Shown: positions 9,844 through 18,203 of the stretch, one piece after another | Position numbering within the stretch: position 1 is the first letter of the stretch | Layout of the letters: every line of letters begins with the position of its first letter | NCBI GenBank assembly: GCA_965202785.1 | Contig: OZ241855.1 | Location: forward strand, 224,001-288,000 | Origin: Thermodesulfobacteriota bacterium | GTDB taxonomy: Bacteria; Desulfobacterota_D; UBA1144; Nemesobacterales; Nemesobacteraceae | Length of the DNA: 64,000 nt | Direction: 5' to 3' | Notes under the pieces: generated by a model | Databases searched by the model: none | What the model was told of the DNA's origin: nothing | What the model saw: only the letters and a program-made list of their open reading frames with translations | Made by a program: the position numbers and the translations under genes

Positions 9844-9968
9844 ACAGCGAAGATACTCAACATGAGGTACGGGATTAGGGGCCGTCGGCCCAGGCTCCTG
9901 TCAGATTCCTGCAGGAAATAAAATCCCGCCACGCCGAAACCGAAGACCTCACCGGCCCGATTACATCA

Positions 9969-10020
9969 TTGACACGGTACTTTCTCATGTGGTAAGCTAA
10001 ATGATAATATTTCTCATTTA
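9969..10020 (+). promoter_or_regulatory. Sigma70-type promoter with overlapping Fur-family (Zur/Fur) box
   Basis: TTGACA (9969) - 18 nt - TAAGCT (9993) with extended-10 TG; palindrome TAAATGATAATATTTCTCATTTA at 9998-10020. Confidence 0.8.
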
Positions 10021-10029
10021 CCTATGCAG

Positions 10030-10314
10030 ATGAGCAGAACATTTTCCTTATCGCTTACAATCGCCTTTCTGGGAGCGCAGATGCTTTCTTTTGCCCATGC
10101 GGCCGAATACGGTTCCTGGGAACACGAGCATGAGGGAGTTTCCTGCGAAATCTGCCTGAGCGCCAAGTATCAGGACTTCTCAAGTCCCGGCGCCGCGAGC
10201 GGGCCCAGTGTTCTCCGCCACGCGGAATACGTCTCGCAGTCACCCACTGGCGCTACCATCGTTCGGGACGATTACGATGAGGGAATTACCCGCGGACCTC
10301 CCCTTTCCTCCTGA
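10030..10314 (+). CDS. Putative leader/arrest peptide, DUF2946/CruR-like (copy 1)
   Basis: 94 aa: hydrophobic N-terminus, HEH, CEIC, C-terminal RGPP; start set by homology with copy 2. Confidence 0.8.
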   Translation: MSRTFSLSLTIAFLGAQMLSFAHAAEYGSWEHEHEGVSCEICLSAKYQDFSSPGAASGPSVLRHAEYVSQSPTGATIVRDDYDEGITRGPPLSS

Positions 10315-10332
10315 GATGTAGACAGACTTTTT

Positions 10333-10371
10333 ATTCCCCGCGCATACGTGCGGGCAGCGGAATTTTCTTTT
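10333..10371 (+). terminator. Hairpin plus U-tract between leader ORF and downstream gene (possible attenuator), copy 1
   Basis: CCCGCGC-ATAC-GTGCGGG stem, extendable by ATTCC/GGAAT, followed by TTTTCTTTT; identical in copy 2. Confidence 0.55.
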
Positions 10372-10391
10372 AAAACTTTAAGGAGGAAAAA

Positions 10392-11885
10392 ATGAATATA
10401 TTGCGTTTCGCGGTAATAACTGCGTTTTTTGCCGTCTTGCCGTTTTCTCATATCCCCGCTTTCGCCGCTTCTGATCAGGAGATAGAAGCTTTAAAGAAGG
10501 AAATACAGGAAATGAGGTCAGAATATGAGAACCGGATTTTAAAGATGGAGGAAAAACTTGCCGAGATGAAGACTGCGGCAACCGTGGATAAAACGAAAAC
10601 GACTTACTCAAAGAGCAGAGACAGCGCCTACCCCGGCAGAGCCGTTTACAACAGCACCCTTAATCCTTCAATCGGAGCGGTACTGGGCGGAACCTTCGCC
10701 GCATTCTCTTCTGACGAGGGCGAGATTCCGGGGTTTGTCCTGGGACACGAAGGAGAACGGGGAGCGGAAGGAATTTCCCTCGGGGAAACCGAACTCAATT
10801 TCTCTACAAGCGTCGATGATAAATTTTACGGACACATAACCACGGCTCTTGCAGACCATGGAGACGGGGTTGAGATAGAGCTTGAGGAAGCGTACGTGGA
10901 AACCCTTCCAGGTTTCGGGCTTCCAACGGGAGCGACGATAAGGATGGGACGCGCGTTCTGGACTTTTGGATACCTGAACGAGCATCACGCCCACGCTGAC
11001 GATTTCGCCGATCGTTCCCTGCCTTACAGGGTGTACCTCGACAATGGCTTTAATGATACCGGAGTGCAGATTTCATACGTGCTTCCAACAGATTTCTATG
11101 TTGAGGCGGGAGGCGGTATTTTCCGCGGAGACGATTTCCCGTTTGCGGGAGCTGAGGGTAGCGACATAAACTCATTCAGCGCCTTCCTGCGGGTAGGCGG
11201 TGACATAGGAAATAATTCATCCTGGAGAATCGGAGGTTATTTCCTTGACGGAGAGGCAAGCGGTCGCGGCGGCGGACATGGACACGAAGACGAGCATGCC
11301 CATGAAGAAAACGGCCATGATGATGACCACATGGATGAACACATGGATGAACACGATGATGACCACATGGATGAACACGCGGATGAACACGATGATGACC
11401 ACATGGATGAACATGGACATGAGGAGTTCTTCAGCGCCGGCATGTTTACGGGCGACACGAGGCTTTACTCGGTTGATTTTCGCTACGTTTGGGCCCCCAC
11501 CGGAAACATCCGCCAAAAAGAGGTGCTTCTCCAAGGTGAGTATTTCTGGCGTGACGAAGAAGGCTACTACACTCTTGAGGAAGGAGGCGAGGTCCACGAA
11601 GAGCACCTCGACGGAGGAAGCCACGGCTGGTACGCGCAGGGGGTTTTCAAGTTCTCGCCGAAATGGAGAATCGGAGCCCGCTATTCCCAGATATACTCTC
11701 CCGAGGATTCAGGGATAGATCACGATCCCTACGCGGTAGCGGTCATGGGCGACTGGTCAAACAGCGAGTTCTCGCGCTTACGCCTTCAGTACAACTATGA
11801 AAAACTGGGAGAGGACCTGAGCGACAACCAGATCCTGCTCCAGTACATAATGAGCATAGGCGCACACGCCGCGCATAAATACTAA
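10392..11885 (+). CDS. His-rich outer-membrane beta-barrel protein, putative metal (Zn)-regulated porin/receptor
   Basis: Signal peptide, coiled coil, LEEAY, FGYLNEHHAHADDF, SEFSRLRLQY, C-terminal GAHAAHKY, internal His/Asp loop. Confidence 0.8.
   Translation: MNILRFAVITAFFAVLPFSHIPAFAASDQEIEALKKEIQEMRSEYENRILKMEEKLAEMKTAATVDKTKTTYSKSRDSAYPGRAVYNSTLNPSIGAVLGGTFAAFSSDEGEIPGFVLGHEGERGAEGISLGETELNFSTSVDDKFYGHITTALADHGDGVEIELEEAYVETLPGFGLPTGATIRMGRAFWTFGYLNEHHAHADDFADRSLPYRVYLDNGFNDTGVQISYVLPTDFYVEAGGGIFRGDDFPFAGAEGSDINSFSAFLRVGGDIGNNSSWRIGGYFLDGEASGRGGGHGHEDEHAHEENGHDDDHMDEHMDEHDDDHMDEHADEHDDDHMDEHGHEEFFSAGMFTGDTRLYSVDFRYVWAPTGNIRQKEVLLQGEYFWRDEEGYYTLEEGGEVHEEHLDGGSHGWYAQGVFKFSPKWRIGARYSQIYSPEDSGIDHDPYAVAVMGDWSNSEFSRLRLQYNYEKLGEDLSDNQILLQYIMSIGAHAAHKY
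11316..11411 (+). repeat. Eight tandem 12-bp units encoding HDDD/HMDE/HADE
   Basis: CACATGGATGAA and CAYGATGATGAC units arranged in a 36-bp higher-order pattern. Confidence 0.9.
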
Positions 11886-11889
11886 GAGC

Positions 11890-11920
11890 AACCGTAGCGT
11901 GAAACGCTACCTGGTTTTTC
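11890..11920 (+). terminator. Intrinsic terminator after the porin gene
   Basis: GTAGCGT-GAA-ACGCTAC hairpin followed by CTGGTTTTT; a second GC-rich hairpin GCCGGGGCCGC/GCGGCCCCGGC lies at 11934-11960. Confidence 0.65.
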
Positions 11921-12021
11921 TCTCCATCCTCCTGCCGGGGCCGCTTTTCGCGGCCCCGGCATATTTTTTGGCAACTGCCCCAAGGAATCGGTGGAACTGA
12001 CGGCCCGAAGTACATACATCA

Positions 12022-12073
12022 TTGACACCGTACTTTCTCGTGTGGTAGGCTAAATGATAATATTTCTCATTTA
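12022..12073 (+). promoter_or_regulatory. Sigma70-type promoter with Fur-family (Zur/Fur) box, copy 2
   Basis: TTGACA (12022) - 18 nt - TAGGCT (12046); identical 23-bp box at 12051-12073. Confidence 0.8.
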
Positions 12074-12082
12074 CCCATACAG

Positions 12083-12367
12083 ATGAACAAAACATTTTCC
12101 TTATTGCTTACAATCGCCTTTCTGGGGGCGCAGATGCTTTCCTTTGCCCATGCGGCCGAGTGCGGTTCCCGGGAGCATAAGCATGAGGGCACTGAATGCG
12201 AGATATGCCTGAACGCCAAGTATCAGGACTATACAGATCCCGGCGCCACGAGTGAAGTCCGTGTTCTTCACCGCGCACAGAACGTCCCGCAGCCACTCGC
12301 TGACGTTATCGTCGTTCGGGACACTTGCGAAGCGGGAATTACCCGCGGACCTCCCGTCTCTTCCTGA
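12083..12367 (+). CDS. Putative leader/arrest peptide, DUF2946/CruR-like (copy 2)
   Basis: 94 aa: hydrophobic N-terminus, HKH, CEIC, C-terminal RGPP with the same spacing as copy 1. Confidence 0.8.
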   Translation: MNKTFSLLLTIAFLGAQMLSFAHAAECGSREHKHEGTECEICLNAKYQDYTDPGATSEVRVLHRAQNVPQPLADVIVVRDTCEAGITRGPPVSS

Positions 12368-12443
12368 GCCGTAAACAGACTTTTTATTCCCCGCGCATAC
12401 GTGCGGGCAGCGGAATTTTCTTTTAAAACTTAAGGAGGAAAAA

Positions 12444-13355
12444 ATGAATATATTGCGTTTCGCGGTAATAACTGCGTTTTTTGCCGTCTTGCCGTTTTCT
12501 CATATCTCCGCTTTCGCCGCTTCTTATCAGAAGGTAAAAGTATTTGCCTGCGAACCGGAATGGGCGGCACTGGCCCAAGAAATCGGCGGTGACAAGGTGG
12601 AAGCGTTTTCAGCCACCTCGGCCACACAGAATCCACACTACATAAGGGCACGCCCAAGCCTGATATCCAAAGTGCGCAAAGCCGATCTGCTGATCTGCTC
12701 GGGCGCAAGTCTTGAGGTAGGCTGGCTTCCGGTTCTGCTTAAGAAGGCAAGTTCTGATCTCCAGCCCGGCTCCCCCGGTTACCTTATGGCTTCAAATCTG
12801 CTCACCATGCTCGAAGTACCGGTTGTGGTCGACCGCAGCATGGGAGATATACATCCGGAAGGCAATCCCCACGTGCACCTGAATCCGTACAACCTGATAA
12901 TTGTAGGCGAAGTGCTTGCCGATCGCCTTTCGGAAATCGACCCTGGGACCGCCTCTTTTTACAAAAACCGATTCCGGGATTTTTCATCACGCATGCAAAA
13001 GGCCATCTCCCGGTGGGAATCCGAGGCCGCCGAGCTTAAAGGAAAGCCGGTGGTGGTTCATCACAAATCGTTTAGTTATCTGATTGACTGGCTCGGAATG
13101 AAAGGAGTGGGGGCGCTTGAACCGAAACCCGGAATTCCCCCCACAGCTTCTCACCTGAAGAATCTGCTGCTGCAGTTAAGAAACAGCCCGGCGGATGTGA
13201 TTATCCGTACCCCTTACGATCCGGGTGACGCGAGTGAATGGTTCTCGGAGAAAACCGGGGCAAGGGCAGTCGTGCTTCCTTACACCGTTGGCGGTGACAG
13301 CCAGAGCGGCGACCTGTTCGCGCTGTTTGACAGGACTATAGCTTTGTTAAAATAG
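12444..13355 (+). CDS. Metal ABC transporter substrate-binding protein, ZnuA/TroA family
   Basis: QNPHYIRARPS, GASLEVGWL, GDIHPEGNPHVHLNP, EPKPGIPPT. Confidence 0.9.
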   Translation: MNILRFAVITAFFAVLPFSHISAFAASYQKVKVFACEPEWAALAQEIGGDKVEAFSATSATQNPHYIRARPSLISKVRKADLLICSGASLEVGWLPVLLKKASSDLQPGSPGYLMASNLLTMLEVPVVVDRSMGDIHPEGNPHVHLNPYNLIIVGEVLADRLSEIDPGTASFYKNRFRDFSSRMQKAISRWESEAAELKGKPVVVHHKSFSYLIDWLGMKGVGALEPKPGIPPTASHLKNLLLQLRNSPADVIIRTPYDPGDASEWFSEKTGARAVVLPYTVGGDSQSGDLFALFDRTIALLK

Positions 13356-13359
13356 ACAT

Positions 13360-14124
13360 ATGATGTTGAGTGGTGAACTTCTGGAAATCATCGGGCCGGC
13401 AGTGGCTGCCGGCCTCATGATTGCGCTTACCCACGCTCCCTTGGGCATCGAGGTGCTGCGCCGCGGCATCATCTTTATTGATCTTGCGGTGGCGCAGATT
13501 GCGGGACTCGGGCTTGTGGCCGGCAACATGTTTATCCATGACCCGTCTCCGTGGCTGATCCAGTTAATGGCTCTTGGCTGCGCGGTCGCGGCAGGGCTGT
13601 TTTTCCGCAAGGTGGAAACGGCGATGCCCGAGCGACAGGAAGCGGTCATAGGGTGCACTTTCGTACTTGCCGCATCGCTGGCGCTTCTGCTGCTGGCCGA
13701 TCACCCCCACGGCGGAGAAGAGGTAAAACACCTGCTTTCGGGACAGATGCTGTTTGTGACATGGACAGACGTGGCGAAACACTCGCCCATTTACGCGTTG
13801 ATACTGCTGGCTTGGTTCTTCAGGCCCGAGGTGCGGAACAACGTTGGATTTTACCTGCTCTTCGCCCTTGCCATCACTTCGTCGGTTCAGCTGGTCGGCG
13901 TCTATGTAGTCTTTGCGAGCCTCATACTTCCGGCTCTGGCCGCCGTACGCGTAAGAAAGCCTCATCTTGTCGCATGGCTCTGCGGGGTGGTGGCGCTTCT
14001 GTCAGGCATCGCCTTCGCCGTAGCGTTCGATATGCCTGCCGGACCGATTATTATCCTGTCATATACCGCGACGGCCCTGATCATACGAGGGGTCAGGATG
14101 GCAAACCGGGATCATAAAATTTAA
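13360..14124 (+). CDS. Metal ABC transporter permease, ZnuB-like
   Basis: Highly hydrophobic; RRGIIFIDLAVAQIA and GVYVVFASLILPA; follows the binding-protein gene. Confidence 0.88.
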   Translation: MMLSGELLEIIGPAVAAGLMIALTHAPLGIEVLRRGIIFIDLAVAQIAGLGLVAGNMFIHDPSPWLIQLMALGCAVAAGLFFRKVETAMPERQEAVIGCTFVLAASLALLLLADHPHGGEEVKHLLSGQMLFVTWTDVAKHSPIYALILLAWFFRPEVRNNVGFYLLFALAITSSVQLVGVYVVFASLILPALAAVRVRKPHLVAWLCGVVALLSGIAFAVAFDMPAGPIIILSYTATALIIRGVRMANRDHKI

Positions 14125-14204: not shown

Positions 14205-14254
14205 ATTATCGTTAAATAAATCCTTTCGACATGAAACGTCAGGAGGTCAGAGAG

Positions 14255-15373
14255 ATGAGACAATTTGATGTTGTTATTGTTGGAGCCGGTCCGGCAGGGA
14301 TAGGGATTGCCGCTATGCTTAAGGATCTGGGTATAAAGCGAATGATTGTTCTTGAGAGAGAAAAAGTCGGCGCGACTTTCGATAAATGGCCGAAGGAAAT
14401 GCAACTCCTAACCCCTTCATTTACAACTAACTTTTATGGTCATCTTGACCTTAATGCGGTTATATCCGGGACCTCGCCAGCATATATGCTTCGAAAGGAA
14501 CACCCTACCGGCAAGGAGTATGCCCGGTATTTAAGAGAGATATCAGAATATTTTGATTTGCCAGTTGTTGAACATACAAATGTAGAGAAGGTGCTTTATT
14601 CTGAAGGCTCTTTTAAGGTTCATATTACTGGAGGAAAGCCGATAGAGTCTCGCTTTTTGATTTGGGCGGGCGGAGAATTTCAGTACCCGAATACAAATCC
14701 TTTTTCAGGTGCTGAGTTGTGTTTGCATAACAGCCGAGTGAAAAGCTGGGAACACGTTAAAGGCGATGAAATTTATATTATCGGCGGTTATGAGAGCGGA
14801 ATTGATGCAGCCATCCATTTGAGTCGACTGGGCAAAAAGGTTCATGTATTAGACCGCGATGCGCGTTGGAGCAAAGAAACAACTGACCCAAGTGAAAACT
14901 TATCGCCTTTTACGTTGGAGAGGTTGAGGCAGGAAATAATTTATAACAGGATTGAGCTTGTTGGTAAATCCATGGTCAGGGAGATAAGGCTGGAGCAGGA
15001 CAAGTATTTGATTTATGTCAGAGGCAAATCATCACCTTATCAAAGCGCCACACCACCCATTTTGGCAACAGGATTTAAAAGCAGCCTGGTCGTCATTAAA
15101 GAGTTGTTTGATTGGGAGAAGAATAAAGACTACTGTTTGCTGAATGAGCAGGATGAATCAACCAAAACTTCTGGATTGTTTCTCGTTGGTCCACAAGTTC
15201 GCCATGATGATCTTATTTTCTGTTTTATTTATAAATATCGGCAGAGGTTTGGTGTTGTCGCTAATGCAATTGGAGAGCGATTGGGCATGGATACAACGCT
15301 GCTTGAGACATATCGCAATGAAGGCCTCTACCTGGATGATTTGAGCTGCTGCGGAGAGGAGTGTGTTTGCTGA
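14255..15373 (+). CDS. FAD/NAD(P)-dependent oxidoreductase with Cys-rich C-terminal tail
   Basis: GAGPAG, IIGGYESG, LATGF; ends DDLSCCGEECVC; RBS AGGAGG at 14241 favours ATG 14255. Confidence 0.85.
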   Translation: MRQFDVVIVGAGPAGIGIAAMLKDLGIKRMIVLEREKVGATFDKWPKEMQLLTPSFTTNFYGHLDLNAVISGTSPAYMLRKEHPTGKEYARYLREISEYFDLPVVEHTNVEKVLYSEGSFKVHITGGKPIESRFLIWAGGEFQYPNTNPFSGAELCLHNSRVKSWEHVKGDEIYIIGGYESGIDAAIHLSRLGKKVHVLDRDARWSKETTDPSENLSPFTLERLRQEIIYNRIELVGKSMVREIRLEQDKYLIYVRGKSSPYQSATPPILATGFKSSLVVIKELFDWEKNKDYCLLNEQDESTKTSGLFLVGPQVRHDDLIFCFIYKYRQRFGVVANAIGERLGMDTTLLETYRNEGLYLDDLSCCGEECVC

Positions 15374-15591
15374 TGCAAGAAGAACTAGTTCAGAAAGAAA
15401 TTAAGACCAATATAAGCATACAATGGTTATGCCAATTGATCGCCAGTTTGTCCTGGTTCACTTCCGTTATTGTTTACGGATCATTTGAACTGGGTGATTG
15501 CCTGCAATTGTTAGCTGCATCCGCGTGGACCGTATCTAATATTGTGAATTATTTTACTAACAAAAATCATGTCATAAGCCAAAGCATGTGA
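15373..15591 (+). CDS. Small membrane protein
   Basis: TGATG coupling to the upstream gene; two hydrophobic helices. Confidence 0.65.
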   Translation: MQEELVQKEIKTNISIQWLCQLIASLSWFTSVIVYGSFELGDCLQLLAASAWTVSNIVNYFTNKNHVISQSM

Positions 15592-15791
15592 CGGTGGAAG
15601 TAGAAAGCCAGTGTCAGCAGAAGTGGCTTCTGGCGCATACGATGCCCTTAAGTTTGGAACTCCTGAACAAAGATGCCGGTTGATGAACTTTGTATTTTCG
15701 AACCTGGAGCTAAAGAGATTAACCCTTTGTTATACCTCGCCCCTTGAAAAAACTGTTTGATAGGTTCGTAAATGCGTCTAATATTGAAGAA

Positions 15792-15868
15792 TGGCGCGCC
15801 CGGAGGGATTCGAACCCCCAACCTCTTGATCCGTAGTCAAGCGCTCTGTCCAGTTGGGCTACGGGCGC
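15792..15868 (-). tRNA. tRNA-Arg(ACG)
   Basis: GCGCCCGTAGCCCAACTGGACAGAGCGCTTGACT-ACG-GATCAAG...GGTTCGAATCC...GCCA. Confidence 0.97.
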
Positions 15869-15998
15869 GGAAAAGTAACGCTTCCTAATGGTTCCTGAGC
15901 CGAGTGGAGCAGTCAAACCAAAAAAAGGCAGGAACGATTAACAATACGAATTTCTGTATTATAATAGTCGTTCTGAATTTTATTCTGGGAAAAACTAA

Positions 15999-16619
15999 AT
16001 GGAAGAGCTTGAATCGCTTCTTGACATCGAAGTCGAAACCTATCTTCGCAGGGTGAAAGACAAAGAGGAGATAAAGGATCTTGTTTCAGGGAACCTCTCC
16101 CGGGAAACCTATGCAAGATTCCTGTTCACTTTTTATATAATCGAATTTCTGAGTCAGAGAGCCGTTAACATGGCAAGCATAAACACTAAAGACTCCGATC
16201 CCTACCTGAGCAAAAGGTTTCATTCCTGCGCACAGGGAGAACTCGGGCATGCAGAGATTGCCCTTCGTGATCTAAAGGATCTCGGAGAGAAGGAGATCAA
16301 TCCTTTCTGCCTAGAGATCGTAAGGGAATACGACGAGTTCCTCCAGAACGCCGCCGAGCAGTTTCCTCTCGCGATACTCGGACATTCCTATCTGTTTGAA
16401 AACGTATCGGGGCTTCTTTTCCCCGAGTTAGAAACAGTTCCCGATCCCTCAACATTCATAGAGGTTCACGCCAAGGAAGATCCCGCGCACTCTCTGGCGA
16501 TAAAGAAAACGGTAAGAAGAATCGAAAAAGATCTCGGCAAAGAAAAGATCGAAAAAATAGTCCAGTTCAGCAGGGAAAGCGGAGACTACCTGATGCGGCT
16601 ATTTGACTCCCTTGCTTAA
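15999..16619 (+). CDS. Haem-oxygenase-like (TenA/PqqC/CADD fold) putative di-iron redox enzyme
   Basis: Helical-looking sequence with E...ELGH...YLFE...HAKEDPAH ligand pattern. Confidence 0.65.
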   Translation: MEELESLLDIEVETYLRRVKDKEEIKDLVSGNLSRETYARFLFTFYIIEFLSQRAVNMASINTKDSDPYLSKRFHSCAQGELGHAEIALRDLKDLGEKEINPFCLEIVREYDEFLQNAAEQFPLAILGHSYLFENVSGLLFPELETVPDPSTFIEVHAKEDPAHSLAIKKTVRRIEKDLGKEKIEKIVQFSRESGDYLMRLFDSLA

Positions 16620-17195
16620 GCCCAGGATCTCTTCGTAGCGAAAACACGAGACCAGGTGATCGTTCACCACCCCCGTCGCCTGAAGATGGGCGTAGACGAT
16701 AGTGGGACCCATGAAGCGGAAGCCCCTTTTCTTAAGGTCGCGACTGACCGTCACTGAAAGTTCCGTCGAGGCCGGTATTTCCGATAGTTCCTCCCAGGCG
16801 TTAGTAACCGGGACTCCGCCGGTAAATCCCCACAGATAATCGGAGAAGCTTCCGAACTCATCCCGTATTTCAAGGAACCGCACGGCGTTATTTATCGAAG
16901 CCTCTATTTTCTTTCGGTTGCGTATTATTCCGCTGTCCGACATGAGCTCCTGTATCTTCTCCTCTCGGTAGCGGGCGACTTTTTCCGGATCGAACCCGTC
17001 GTAAAGACGCCTGTAGTTCTCCCTTTTTCGAAGAACCGTAAGCCAGCTGAGGCCCGCCTGGGCGGATTCTAGGACCAGAAACTCAAACTGCTTTTCGTCG
17101 GAGAAAACGGGAACTCCCCACTCCTTGTCGTGGTAATCCCTCTCAAGGTCGCTTCGCTCGCACCATGGACATCTTCGCATCTTATCTCTCCCCAC
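16599..17195 (-). CDS. tag: DNA-3-methyladenine glycosylase I
   Basis: RCPW, YHDKEWG, LESAQAGLSW, GIIRNRKKI, NDHLVSC. Confidence 0.95.
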   Translation of the reverse strand: MGRDKMRRCPWCERSDLERDYHDKEWGVPVFSDEKQFEFLVLESAQAGLSWLTVLRKRENYRRLYDGFDPEKVARYREEKIQELMSDSGIIRNRKKIEASINNAVRFLEIRDEFGSFSDYLWGFTGGVPVTNAWEELSEIPASTELSVTVSRDLKKRGFRFMGPTIVYAHLQATGVVNDHLVSCFRYEEILGLSKGVK

Positions 17196-17198
17196 GGT

Positions 17199-18203
17199 TC
17201 AAAGAAAGGCGTTATAGAGAAACCCGAAAAAAAGCACCTGAGGGACGGCCACTACGGGAAGGAGCAAGGCCGTCTTTCTGCCTATGTTAGTCCAGAGAAG
17301 ACCGATCTCCGTATAGTCGGTCACAACTCCCGCCATCAGAAAGACGAACGGGTTTCCAAATGCCTGGACCTTGTCGTAGATCTCAAACGCAACAACCGAA
17401 CTTCCCTCGCTGCAGACCTCAATCACGGTAGCTCCCACTAGGGTGAGCAAAAGACCGCCTGTGTCCGGACCAAGATACTGCATAAAAAATTCTCCGGGCA
17501 CGTATACGTCTATCAGGACCGCCGCGATAAGGCCGACTATAAGCCACCAGAGAACCATGTTGGAAAGGTCGAGACTTCCCCTCAAGACCCCCGTGACGCT
17601 TTCCCGGAGGGAAAAGTTCCTTATCCTCTCCCACTCGTATCCTTCCTCCATGTCCCCGAGATAGCTTTTCTCCAGGTAACCGCCCCGTTCAAGCATCCTG
17701 AAGATAAAGCCCGTGACAATCGCTATGAACCCGGCCGTGACTATGAACAGCACGCCCTTCCACCCGAAAAAGCTTATGAGAAGAATGGTTACGGGGAAGT
17801 TCGCCCATGGAGAAGCGAGAAGAAAGGTTATAACCGCCGGGATGCCCGCCCCTTTTCTGTAGATCTGAATCGCTATTGCAAGTATTCCATGGGAACAGGA
17901 GGACATGAGAAACCCCCCGGCAAGAGCATAGAAAAGAGATGAATTCCCCGTTGCGCCAAGGTACCTGTATATAAACCCTTGGGGAACAAAGTAATCTACG
18001 GCCCCGCCGAGAAGAAAACCCACAATAAGCGGGACGGCGAGCAGCTTCAGATAACCCAAGAGGGAAGCATTAAGGGCCGAAAGCGCCGGCAGGAAAGAAA
18101 CGGCTACCAGGCACAGAAGCAACGCAAGAGAGATTTTAAGGTTCCGGCTGACTCTGAGAGGTTCGCCGGGCGGCGTAGTGTGGCAGCAGGAAGCCTCATT
18201 CAT
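17199..18203 (-). CDS. Predicted permease, DUF318/ArsP-like
   Basis: Polytopic membrane protein with duplicated SCSHG / VCSEG motifs and FLLASP. Confidence 0.8.
   Translation of the reverse strand: MNEASCCHTTPPGEPLRVSRNLKISLALLLCLVAVSFLPALSALNASLLGYLKLLAVPLIVGFLLGGAVDYFVPQGFIYRYLGATGNSSLFYALAGGFLMSSCSHGILAIAIQIYRKGAGIPAVITFLLASPWANFPVTILLISFFGWKGVLFIVTAGFIAIVTGFIFRMLERGGYLEKSYLGDMEEGYEWERIRNFSLRESVTGVLRGSLDLSNMVLWWLIVGLIAAVLIDVYVPGEFFMQYLGPDTGGLLLTLVGATVIEVCSEGSSVVAFEIYDKVQAFGNPFVFLMAGVVTDYTEIGLLWTNIGRKTALLLPVVAVPQVLFFGFLYNAFL

Follow-up and report, generated by a model that had tools for sequence, protein, structure and literature searches.

The window analysed here is a stretch of 64,000 nucleotides (contig OZ241855.1, positions 224,001 to 288,000) from the genome of a Thermodesulfobacteriota bacterium whose nearest named relatives are Candidatus Dadabacteria metagenome-assembled genomes. 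It carries two copies of a unit of about 530 bp, the first preceding a gene for a porin-fold protein and the second preceding a znuA-znuB operon. Each unit consists of a promoter, a 23-bp box, a 94-codon leader, a 76-77 nt spacer with a hairpin, a strong Shine-Dalgarno (SD) sequence and the start of the next gene. We consider it probable that the unit is a two-tier zinc-starvation switch, in which a Zur-type repressor would act on the promoter and an RGPP arrest leader would gate the SD. The arrest, the identity of the metal and the direction of the switch are what we infer; the anatomy of the unit, its conservation, the selection acting on it, the covariation of its RNA and the history of its duplication are observed. 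Its parts and the genes that it precedes are located as follows.

9969..9998, + strand: inferred promoter 1 (TTGACA, 18 nt, TG-n-TAAGCT), read from the sequence
9998..10020, + strand: 23-bp Fur-family (putatively Zur-type) operator 1, which runs from the -10 end across the likely start site
10030..10314, + strand: leader open reading frame (ORF) 1, 94 aa, with a hydrophobic segment to H23, H32-x-H34, C39-x2-C42, a 45-aa linker and R88-G-P-P
10291..10314, + strand: RGPP, last codons and stop of leader 1, the predicted anti-SD of the porin SD by complementarity
10337..10371, + strand: copy 1 of the GC hairpin (10337-10354) with an offset U-rich tract (10363-10371), putative apex and 3' arm of a long SD-sequestering structure
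10380..10386, + strand: porin SD, read from the sequence
10392..11885, + strand: 497-aa outer-membrane protein with a porin-like barrel, an N-terminal coiled coil and a His/Asp-rich loop
11899..12000, + strand: remnant of the 5' end that znuA originally had, with the old signal peptide, holding a 12-bp hairpin (11933-11961) followed in this strain by a T-run
12022..12051, + strand: inferred promoter 2, read from the sequence and the repeat alignment
12051..12073, + strand: operator 2, identical to operator 1
12083..12367, + strand: leader ORF 2, 94 aa, with the motifs of leader 1 kept
12344..12367, + strand: RGPP codons and predicted anti-SD of leader 2, with weaker pairing than in copy 1
12390..12424, + strand: copy 2 of the GC hairpin (12390-12407) with an offset U-rich tract (12416-12424)
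12444..13355, + strand: ZnuA-family solute-binding protein with the porin's duplicated signal peptide (PF01297, E 3e-38)
13360..14124, + strand: ZnuB/ABC-3 permease (PF00950, E 2e-18)

The two units (9962-10488 and 12015-12540) are 86.9% identical over 527 nt, and no third copy is present in the whole 1.64-Mb genome. An initial annotation of this DNA had described a duplicated unit of this size in front of two unrelated genes, with a promoter overlapped by a Fur-family palindrome, and both statements are borne out. The repeat extends into the first ~28 codons of the downstream gene, which encode its signal peptide. TTGACA occurs at 9969 and 12022, each time with an extended -10 element 18 nt on, and the -35 element and spacing of promoter 1 are conserved in most copies from the genus; these promoters were read from the sequence, and a promoter consensus scanner called neither of them. 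The operators are identical 23-mers, palindromic at 18 of 22 paired positions.

Both leader peptides carry H23, H32, H34, C39, C42 and R88-G-P-P, as originally described, with 62 of 94 residues identical and RGPP three residues before the stop. The distance from CxxC to RGPP is 45 residues in both, although the linker is the most diverged part of the peptide (13 of 35 residues identical). Residues 5-22 are hydrophobic and a helix is predicted over residues 3-27, in keeping with the export signal of DUF2946 proteins. Structure prediction gives a confident helix-hairpin-helix over residues 1-47, and a fold search with this model returned no match above Z 4.0. The string RGPP occurs 0 times in the 442,589 residues of this genome's ORFs of at least 250 aa, and a hidden Markov model (HMM) built from 53 leaders of other phyla, described below, matched only these two ORFs among 15,326 (E 1e-15 and 5e-14; next 0.04).

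A search of 41 genomes recovered the leader in 21 of the 24 other members of the genus. Among 31 leader copies from 20 genus genomes, CxxC-45-RGPP is kept in 31 and HxH in 27, and the fixed spacing claimed from the two copies of the window thus holds throughout. The ratio of nonsynonymous to synonymous differences (pN/pS), calculated pairwise and uncorrected among relatives that are not independent, is 0.47 for the first leader copies (signal segment 0.36, metal site 0.33, linker 0.69, tail 0.22) and 0.27 for the second copies (n=9). The leader is a real gene under purifying selection. It heads porin-znuA-znuB in 31 of the 35 genus genomes examined, in one of them without its stop, while in the four leaderless members the promoter and box stand directly before the porin and, judged by eye, the leader-type GC hairpin is missing. 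One leaderless relative (L050, in G067) has the promoter and box three times in tandem upstream of the porin, with a degenerate spacer. Elsewhere a 27-codon leader fragment comprising the His/CxxC part (L040, G023:C1:860574-860654) is fused in frame to an unrelated Cys-rich ORF, and in L064 (G062), L093 and L099 the leader stop is lost or shifted, with a tail of 10-25 residues beyond the arrest motif. The leaders of the window have no recognisable SD and start 9 nt past the operator (10020-10030 and 12073-12083), and may therefore be weakly translated themselves.

The porin is found in 86 of 120 genomes of the phylum, and a leader precedes it in 39 of 40 Dadabacteria loci outside the genus (RSPP 29, RAPP 10). 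We then considered the best 80 of 555 porin relatives from a scan of the genome collection, 73 of which lie outside Dadabacteria. In 53 of these 73 loci a hydrophobic leader ending in R-x-P-P precedes the porin (RAPP 40, RGPP 11, RSPP 1, RDPP 1), a linkage to metal-uptake genes that the initial annotation had anticipated. The hosts are mostly Alpha- and Gammaproteobacteria, with single records from Planctomycetes, Verrucomicrobia, Gemmatimonadota and Desulfobia. As a control for the rule by which leaders were recognised, 408 positions gave 2 positives, one of which is a porin already counted. A Cys residue lies 46-50 residues before the Arg in all 92 leaders from outside the genus, including the 53 distant ones. 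Only 28 of the 53 distant leaders have a second Cys; the 25 that lack it retain the His residues and the first Cys. Alignment of 66 leaders shows R-x-P-P to be invariant, with H23 and C39 as the only other residues conserved at ≥90%, and a linker whose sequence drifts at a nearly constant length. RSPP and RDPP are described as variants that are partly permissive for arrest (PMC12992588; what is said here and below of this source and of PMC9426467, PMC9973294, PMC9817125, PMC9337993 and bioRxiv 10.1101/2025.02.05.636593 refers to portions of these texts).

Pfam and NCBIfam hold no family for either window peptide or for the porin. The initial annotation had pointed to DUF2946 (PF11162), the family of the copper-responsive leader CruR; the window peptides have no match to this model at E up to 1, and it is more distant homologues that do. 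Nineteen of the 66 aligned homologues match PF11162 at E up to 0.5 (best 2.1e-7), and none of 28 homologues scanned singly exceeds the 23.7-bit cut-off (best 22.4). The nearest named cluster in the atlas is DUF2946, at 0.93 and with 20% of members. The second related family is DUF2607 (PF10795), which includes ZrgD of the Vibrionaceae. The window peptides do not match it, 8 of the 66 homologues match it weakly, and one further porin leader exceeds its cut-off (30.4 vs 24 bits). That leader is also the best DUF2607 match among 401 genomes sampled from the class of one gammaproteobacterial genome, a search that gave 2 matches and lay outside the Vibrio-type loci. Judged by these profiles, the leader homologues appear to grade into DUF2946 (CruR/CutF) and DUF2607 (ZrgD). 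Among 29 sampled loci of zrgA, a leader is present in 6 and most are without one; five match the leader HMM at E ≤1.3e-5.

RNA folding bears on how the leader may control its gene. In the folded free mRNA the SD is paired with the leader's last codons or its Pro codons in 31 of 31 genus copies (unpaired probability 0-0.16), and masking the bases under a ribosome stalled at Pro90 lowers the median cost of opening the SD from 9.7 to 4.3 kcal/mol across these copies; the median reduction on covering the anti-SD is 4.3 kcal/mol. Pro90 is encoded by CCT in 29 of 29 full-length copies and Ser94 by TCC in 28 of 29. Compared with synonymous recodings, the natural tail codons give the stronger pairing (p up to 0.1) in 18 of 31 genus copies, 28 of 39 other Dadabacteria and 33 of 53 distant loci. 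Both SD and tail sequences vary between lineages across the 53 distant loci, and there the leader tail pairs with its own ribosome-binding site (RBS) at -12.6 kcal/mol vs -8.6 kcal/mol with those of others, a difference reached in 0 of 20,000 permutations, with start codons picked automatically, some of them probably wrongly, and all rows kept. The preference persists in 36 dereplicated loci and within GC strata. Inside Dadabacteria the same test is weak (727 of 20,000) because one SD is common to them; GGAGGT serves as SD in 38 of 39 loci of the other Dadabacteria, and the R-S/A-P-P codons commonly spell its complement. The pairing of the leader's last codons with the downstream RBS covaries across phyla, and SD sequestration by these codons is a better-supported output than an intrinsic attenuator.

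An attenuator-like hairpin, identical in the two units and followed by a U-tract, had been noted in the initial annotation. The hairpins (10337-10354 and 12390-12407) are indeed identical; they make a poor match to an intrinsic attenuator. The U-tract begins 8 nt past the stem in the window, lies 4-13 nt from it in most genus copies and is missing in G021 and G023; a terminator scan called neither copy, and the combination expected of an intrinsic attenuator, a GC stem directly followed by a U-run together with an antiterminator, was not seen, the folds containing no antiterminator. The stem could, with a bulge, reach as far as the U-run; the hairpin is probably not a terminator. Two-sided compensatory changes in this apical GC hairpin occur across the genus, in a comparison in which the automatic choice of stem was wrong in three copies and the last copy was left out. 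We read the hairpin as the apex of a long SD-hiding structure, and it may possibly be a polymerase pause as well. RNA reads, which are contigs of related strains without strand, ends or levels, are uninformative on expression and termination.

A matrix derived from the boxes of the genus gives the operators a score of 38.5, compared with 8.6-20.2 for the best site in five locally shuffled genomes. The genome contains two Fur-family genes, one of them PerR-like. The other (G000:C1:802087-802533) is preceded by a third strong box, with a score of 28.0, and the box is present in 29 of 29 scored orthologues, one further locus not having been parsed. The four sensing-site ligands and the Cys4 site of Synechococcus WH8102 Zur share one register with this regulator (PMC9337993), its H95, H97, C113 and H133 corresponding to D77/H79/C95/H115 at equal offsets from the CxxC in 29 of 29 orthologues, and it aligns without the N-terminal His of canonical Fur; its overall sequence is just as near to Fur models. 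Zur is the most likely protein to bind the box, and the likelier identity of the regulator than Fur, because the box also precedes a regulator gene with the cyanobacterial Zur ligand set. As in known Zur regulons, an operator lies over the promoter and is shared by a Fur-family regulator with zinc-sensing ligands. The regulator gene is located ~5 kb from the uptake operon in three relatives, and a separate DtxR-TroABCD-like locus, recognised from its sequence, covers Mn/Fe. At G000:C1:802055-802927 (L041) the box, the Zur-like gene and a membrane gene, MerC-like by sequence, form what looks like a small autoregulated unit. In L225-L227 (G023, G010, G021) a CzcA-type RND efflux pair is divergent from the leader promoter and shares the box region; it is placed between the zur-like gene and the uptake operon.

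The 497-aa protein is modelled by AlphaFold as a plug-less barrel (pLDDT 84) whose best fold matches are 16-18-strand porins, and it has conserved H-x-H motifs and a C-terminal His motif. The porin appears to belong to the family that other annotations call 'zinc-regulated TonB-dependent receptor'. The znuA-znuB operon behind the second unit has no ATPase gene (12444-14124), and the same holds in the genus and in most distant loci. In other Dadabacteria families there is a gap of 1.6-2.2 kb between znuA and znuB, which could hold an ATPase gene. Positions 11270-11430 of the porin gene contain a His/Asp/Glu-rich 12-nt tandem repeat, in a low-confidence loop, that varies in length among strains and reads. 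Beyond the operon, 14231-18203 encodes a flavin oxidoreductase with CCxxxCxC at its end, an ORF resembling haem oxygenase and an ArsP-type permease whose N-terminus is rich in Cys and His, a cluster that is possibly metal-related.

Comparison of related genomes shows how the second unit arose. In single-unit genomes znuA stands immediately behind the porin gene and encodes its own signal peptide; in two-unit genomes the decaying 5' end of the old znuA lies between the porin and promoter 2, and ZnuA begins with the porin's signal peptide. The 11 two-unit genomes and G002 form one clade (support 100/99; 19-genome tree without G008), G002 has the fused signal peptide and lacks the second leader, and the second leaders form one clade. 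The ancestral operon had one unit before porin-znuA-znuB, and the duplication placed the second in the znuA start. This was one duplication, in the ancestor of the 12-genome clade, with one later loss; znuAB has a separate promoter, operator and leader because of it, and of the 12 descendant genomes examined 11 still have the unit complete. Of the 'twice-used' module in the initial annotation the two units remain, and the separate uses reduce to this single event. Spacers of units 1 and 2 are 89-95% alike in G000, G003 and G007 and 68-76% alike in the other eight genomes, and gene conversion or homogenisation is probably behind the identical hairpins of this strain. We rejected these identical intergenic hairpins as a sign of independent conservation, as the strain-wise likeness of the spacers suggests gene conversion. 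Likewise rejected was the idea that hairpin 11933-11961 evolved as an operon-splitting terminator, since single-unit genomes have the same hairpin within the codons of the znuA signal peptide; a T-run follows it in only 3 of 11 two-unit genomes.

The closest described parallel is CruR (Bp2923) of Bordetella pertussis, which acts through Rho, has 45 residues between CxxC and RAPP (45 ± 2 is the criterion for DUF2946 proteins) and works without its signal peptide (PMC9426467); its arrested ribosome has Pro-Pro occupying the P and A sites (PMC12992588). Like CruR and other DUF2946 proteins, the leader is the first gene of a metal-import operon and combines an N-terminal export segment with CxxC 45 residues before R-x-P-P, three residues from the C-terminus, and the predicted sense is the same, with stalling as ON and metal-induced release as OFF. 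Unlike CruR, it ends in RGPP and not RAPP, has extra conserved His ligands with the second Cys dispensable across the family, is not matched by PF11162, precedes a porin and ZnuAB in place of a copper TonB receptor, has a repressor box overlapping its promoter, and shows apparent SD sequestration over ~76 nt where CruR has Rho termination in a 162-nt gap. The context points to zinc rather than to CruR's copper, which agrees with the metal initially suspected.

CutF of Rhodobacter capsulatus is also an exported nascent sensor, with an RBS-shielding stem-loop opened by the stalled ribosome (PMC9973294, bioRxiv 10.1101/2025.02.05.636593). It differs in having CxxxC and a polyproline motif, in depending on EF-P, in stalling when Cu-bound and in controlling a detoxifying oxidase; with RGPP before uptake genes, the opposite polarity would be expected here. 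The leader has, computationally, the SD layout of CutF/SecM-type coupling, weakly so in copy 2 of this strain. In ApdA/ApdP and SecM, RAPP/RGPP-type arrest opens a downstream RBS hairpin (PMC12992588); these monitor protein export, control sec/yidC and are without a conserved His/Cys site. Like such peptides, the leader is a small exported upstream ORF with R-[AG]-P-P close to its C-terminal end, and arrest is predicted from this. ZrgD, a DUF2607 protein, has ~95-100 aa, a hydrophobic segment and a His cluster with Cys. It is VP_RS01475, at the promoter end of the Vibrionaceae zrg zinc operon, whose repression by Zur is experimental, and is described not as a leader peptide but as a protein of unknown function (PMC9817125). 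At least 30 DUF2607 proteins with a C-terminal RAPP appear in the RAPP list of PMC12992588, 24 before DUF2796/ZrgA, 4 before TonB receptors and 2 before a 'carbohydrate porin'; the V. parahaemolyticus ZrgD locus tag is not among the rows listed. Taken together, the leader is most likely CruR-like in polarity and CutF/SecM-like in output, for zinc and under Zur.

The two-tier switch would then operate as follows, close to the design of Fur-family repressor and CruR/CutF-like leader put forward in the initial annotation, which the genomic evidence supports for a predicted repression and arrest. When cytoplasmic zinc is sufficient, a Zur-type repressor would bind the 23-bp box. When transcription proceeds, the ribosome on the leader would arrest at RGPP, one proline in the P site and the other in the A site, and would cover the leader's last codons, otherwise paired with the SD 65-70 nt downstream. 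With the anti-SD covered, arrest would therefore turn the uptake gene on. Available zinc would bind the His/Cys site 46-49 residues upstream of the Arg, and the folding site would pull the chain and free the ribosome; in an engineered construct, zinc-driven folding does release an arrest peptide (PMC4571824). After release the long hairpin would hide the SD and the uptake protein would not be made, with Rho possibly adding polarity afterwards. Extracytoplasmic sensing is plausible, and we lean slightly towards the zinc being sensed on the periplasmic side. Tentatively, and with rather less confidence, we extend this reading to a widespread, as yet unrecognised zinc-sensing RAPP-type branch that includes DUF2607/ZrgD and spans Dadabacteria, Proteobacteria and several other phyla, in which periplasmic zinc would be read by a His/His/Cys site positioned where the Sec channel opens outwards, ~49 residues from the peptidyl-transferase centre of the stalled ribosome, and zinc-uptake genes would be gated by an anti-SD written into the arrest codons.

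Several observations weigh against this model. Copy 2 of this strain is an exception to the folding result, with an SD-AUG opening cost of 5.9 free vs 6.2 stalled (5.5 vs 4.0 for the SD only), and the folding of the whole region is unexceptional (z -1.9 and -1.1). H23 lies within a possible Ala-x-Ala signal-peptidase site, and cleavage could remove it. By overall sequence, Fur models fit the regulator better than Zur models do, and the next-best box (G000:C1:641139, 14.1, within the shuffle range) precedes a ferritin-like gene. The published proteobacterial Zur consensus (PMC2895646), used for other phyla, has a match within 300 nt in 7 of 52 loci with a leader, a minority although well above the 26 of 3,550 shuffles, and in 5 of 19 loci without one. 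The genus matrix, which does not transfer to other lineages, matched 1 of 39 other Dadabacteria; the two-tier pairing may therefore not be general. CutF has this SD layout with reversed polarity. Finally, the 3' half of the leader is C-rich (C/G 1.5) and the genome encodes Rho, which suits a CruR-type Rho mechanism equally well.

This last point bears on the possibility that transcription termination is the main output, either Rho-dependent as in CruR (PMC9426467) or intrinsic at the hairpin and U-tract. The compensatory changes in the hairpin would suit such a mechanism, while the offset or missing U-tract, the negative scan and the folds without an antiterminator do not, and termination does not predict the covariation of tail and RBS. 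In V. parahaemolyticus, zinc limitation raises zrgA mRNA 206-fold and zrgD mRNA 147-fold, leaving little termination between them (PMC9817125), and we regard termination as an unlikely main output. It is rather unlikely that another metal (Cu, Ni, Co, Cd) is sensed or that the polarity is that of CutF, for example with a competing metal shutting uptake or a metal needed for the stall. CxxC at the 45-residue spacing is the copper site of CruR, CutF stalls on Cu binding, His-only CutF-like clusters are tied to Ni/Co genes (PMC9973294), ZnuA-family proteins can also carry Mn or Fe, and three relatives have the CzcA-type efflux operon divergent from the leader. However, the second Cys is lost in 25 of 53 distant leaders with His and the first Cys kept, unlike in CruR, and the cargo is ZnuA/ZnuB, or ZrgA in 6 of 29 sampled loci. 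The regulator has Zur-type ligands. An uptake operon must be ON at low metal, which with the anti-SD layout calls for a stall without metal.

Arrest could also be independent of metal, the leader being a SecM/ApdA-type secretion monitor or a constitutive coupling device that sets the expression level. Exported RAPP/RGPP leaders are best known as Sec/YidC monitors (PMC12992588) and both cargo proteins are exported; with H23 and C39 so well kept at a fixed distance from the arrest motif, and with a cargo for metal uptake and not Sec, we find this very unlikely. The idea that the leaders are small secreted metal-binding chaperones acting in trans, with an incidental RGPP, draws on the signal-peptide-like N-terminus and the confident helix-hairpin-helix. 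It is extremely improbable given the invariance of R-x-P-P, the nearly fixed length of a linker that drifts in sequence, and the position of the leader, which is always directly upstream of the cargo and was duplicated together with the RBS region. The zinc-starvation switch thus remains the reading that we prefer.

To our knowledge, metal-responsive arrest peptides have been demonstrated only for copper, in CruR and CutF. Accounts of bacterial zinc uptake place its control at transcription, through Zur, and a review of Zur regulons contains neither 'post-transcriptional' nor 'riboswitch'. In a literature search that covered subscription journals thinly, we found no description of a zinc-sensing RAPP/RGPP leader, or of a leader peptide, ribosome stalling, zinc uptake and Zur together. 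The statement in the initial annotation that such a configuration is undescribed holds for the main texts; the source data of the 2025 survey (PMC12992588) do include RAPP leaders that precede members of this receptor family, and others that precede ZrgA. The main text of that survey does not mention zinc, and that of PMC9973294, in the part covered here, proposes Ni/Co for His-rich clusters without mention of zinc.

If real, the proposed switch would put a second layer of control under Zur, a fast translational one that could read zinc outside the cytoplasm, and the leader would be the first arrest peptide in nature to respond to zinc. The history of the duplication indicates that the unit acts as a portable cassette of promoter, operator, leader, RBS and signal peptide. 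In V. parahaemolyticus, chelating zinc or deleting zur shifts the activity of a promoter-lacZ fusion only ~2-fold, while zrgA mRNA increases ~200-290-fold (PMC9817125); this gap may hide such a second layer, and the plasmid reporter could also explain it. The model would also provide a function for DUF2607/ZrgD and for many unannotated small ORFs.

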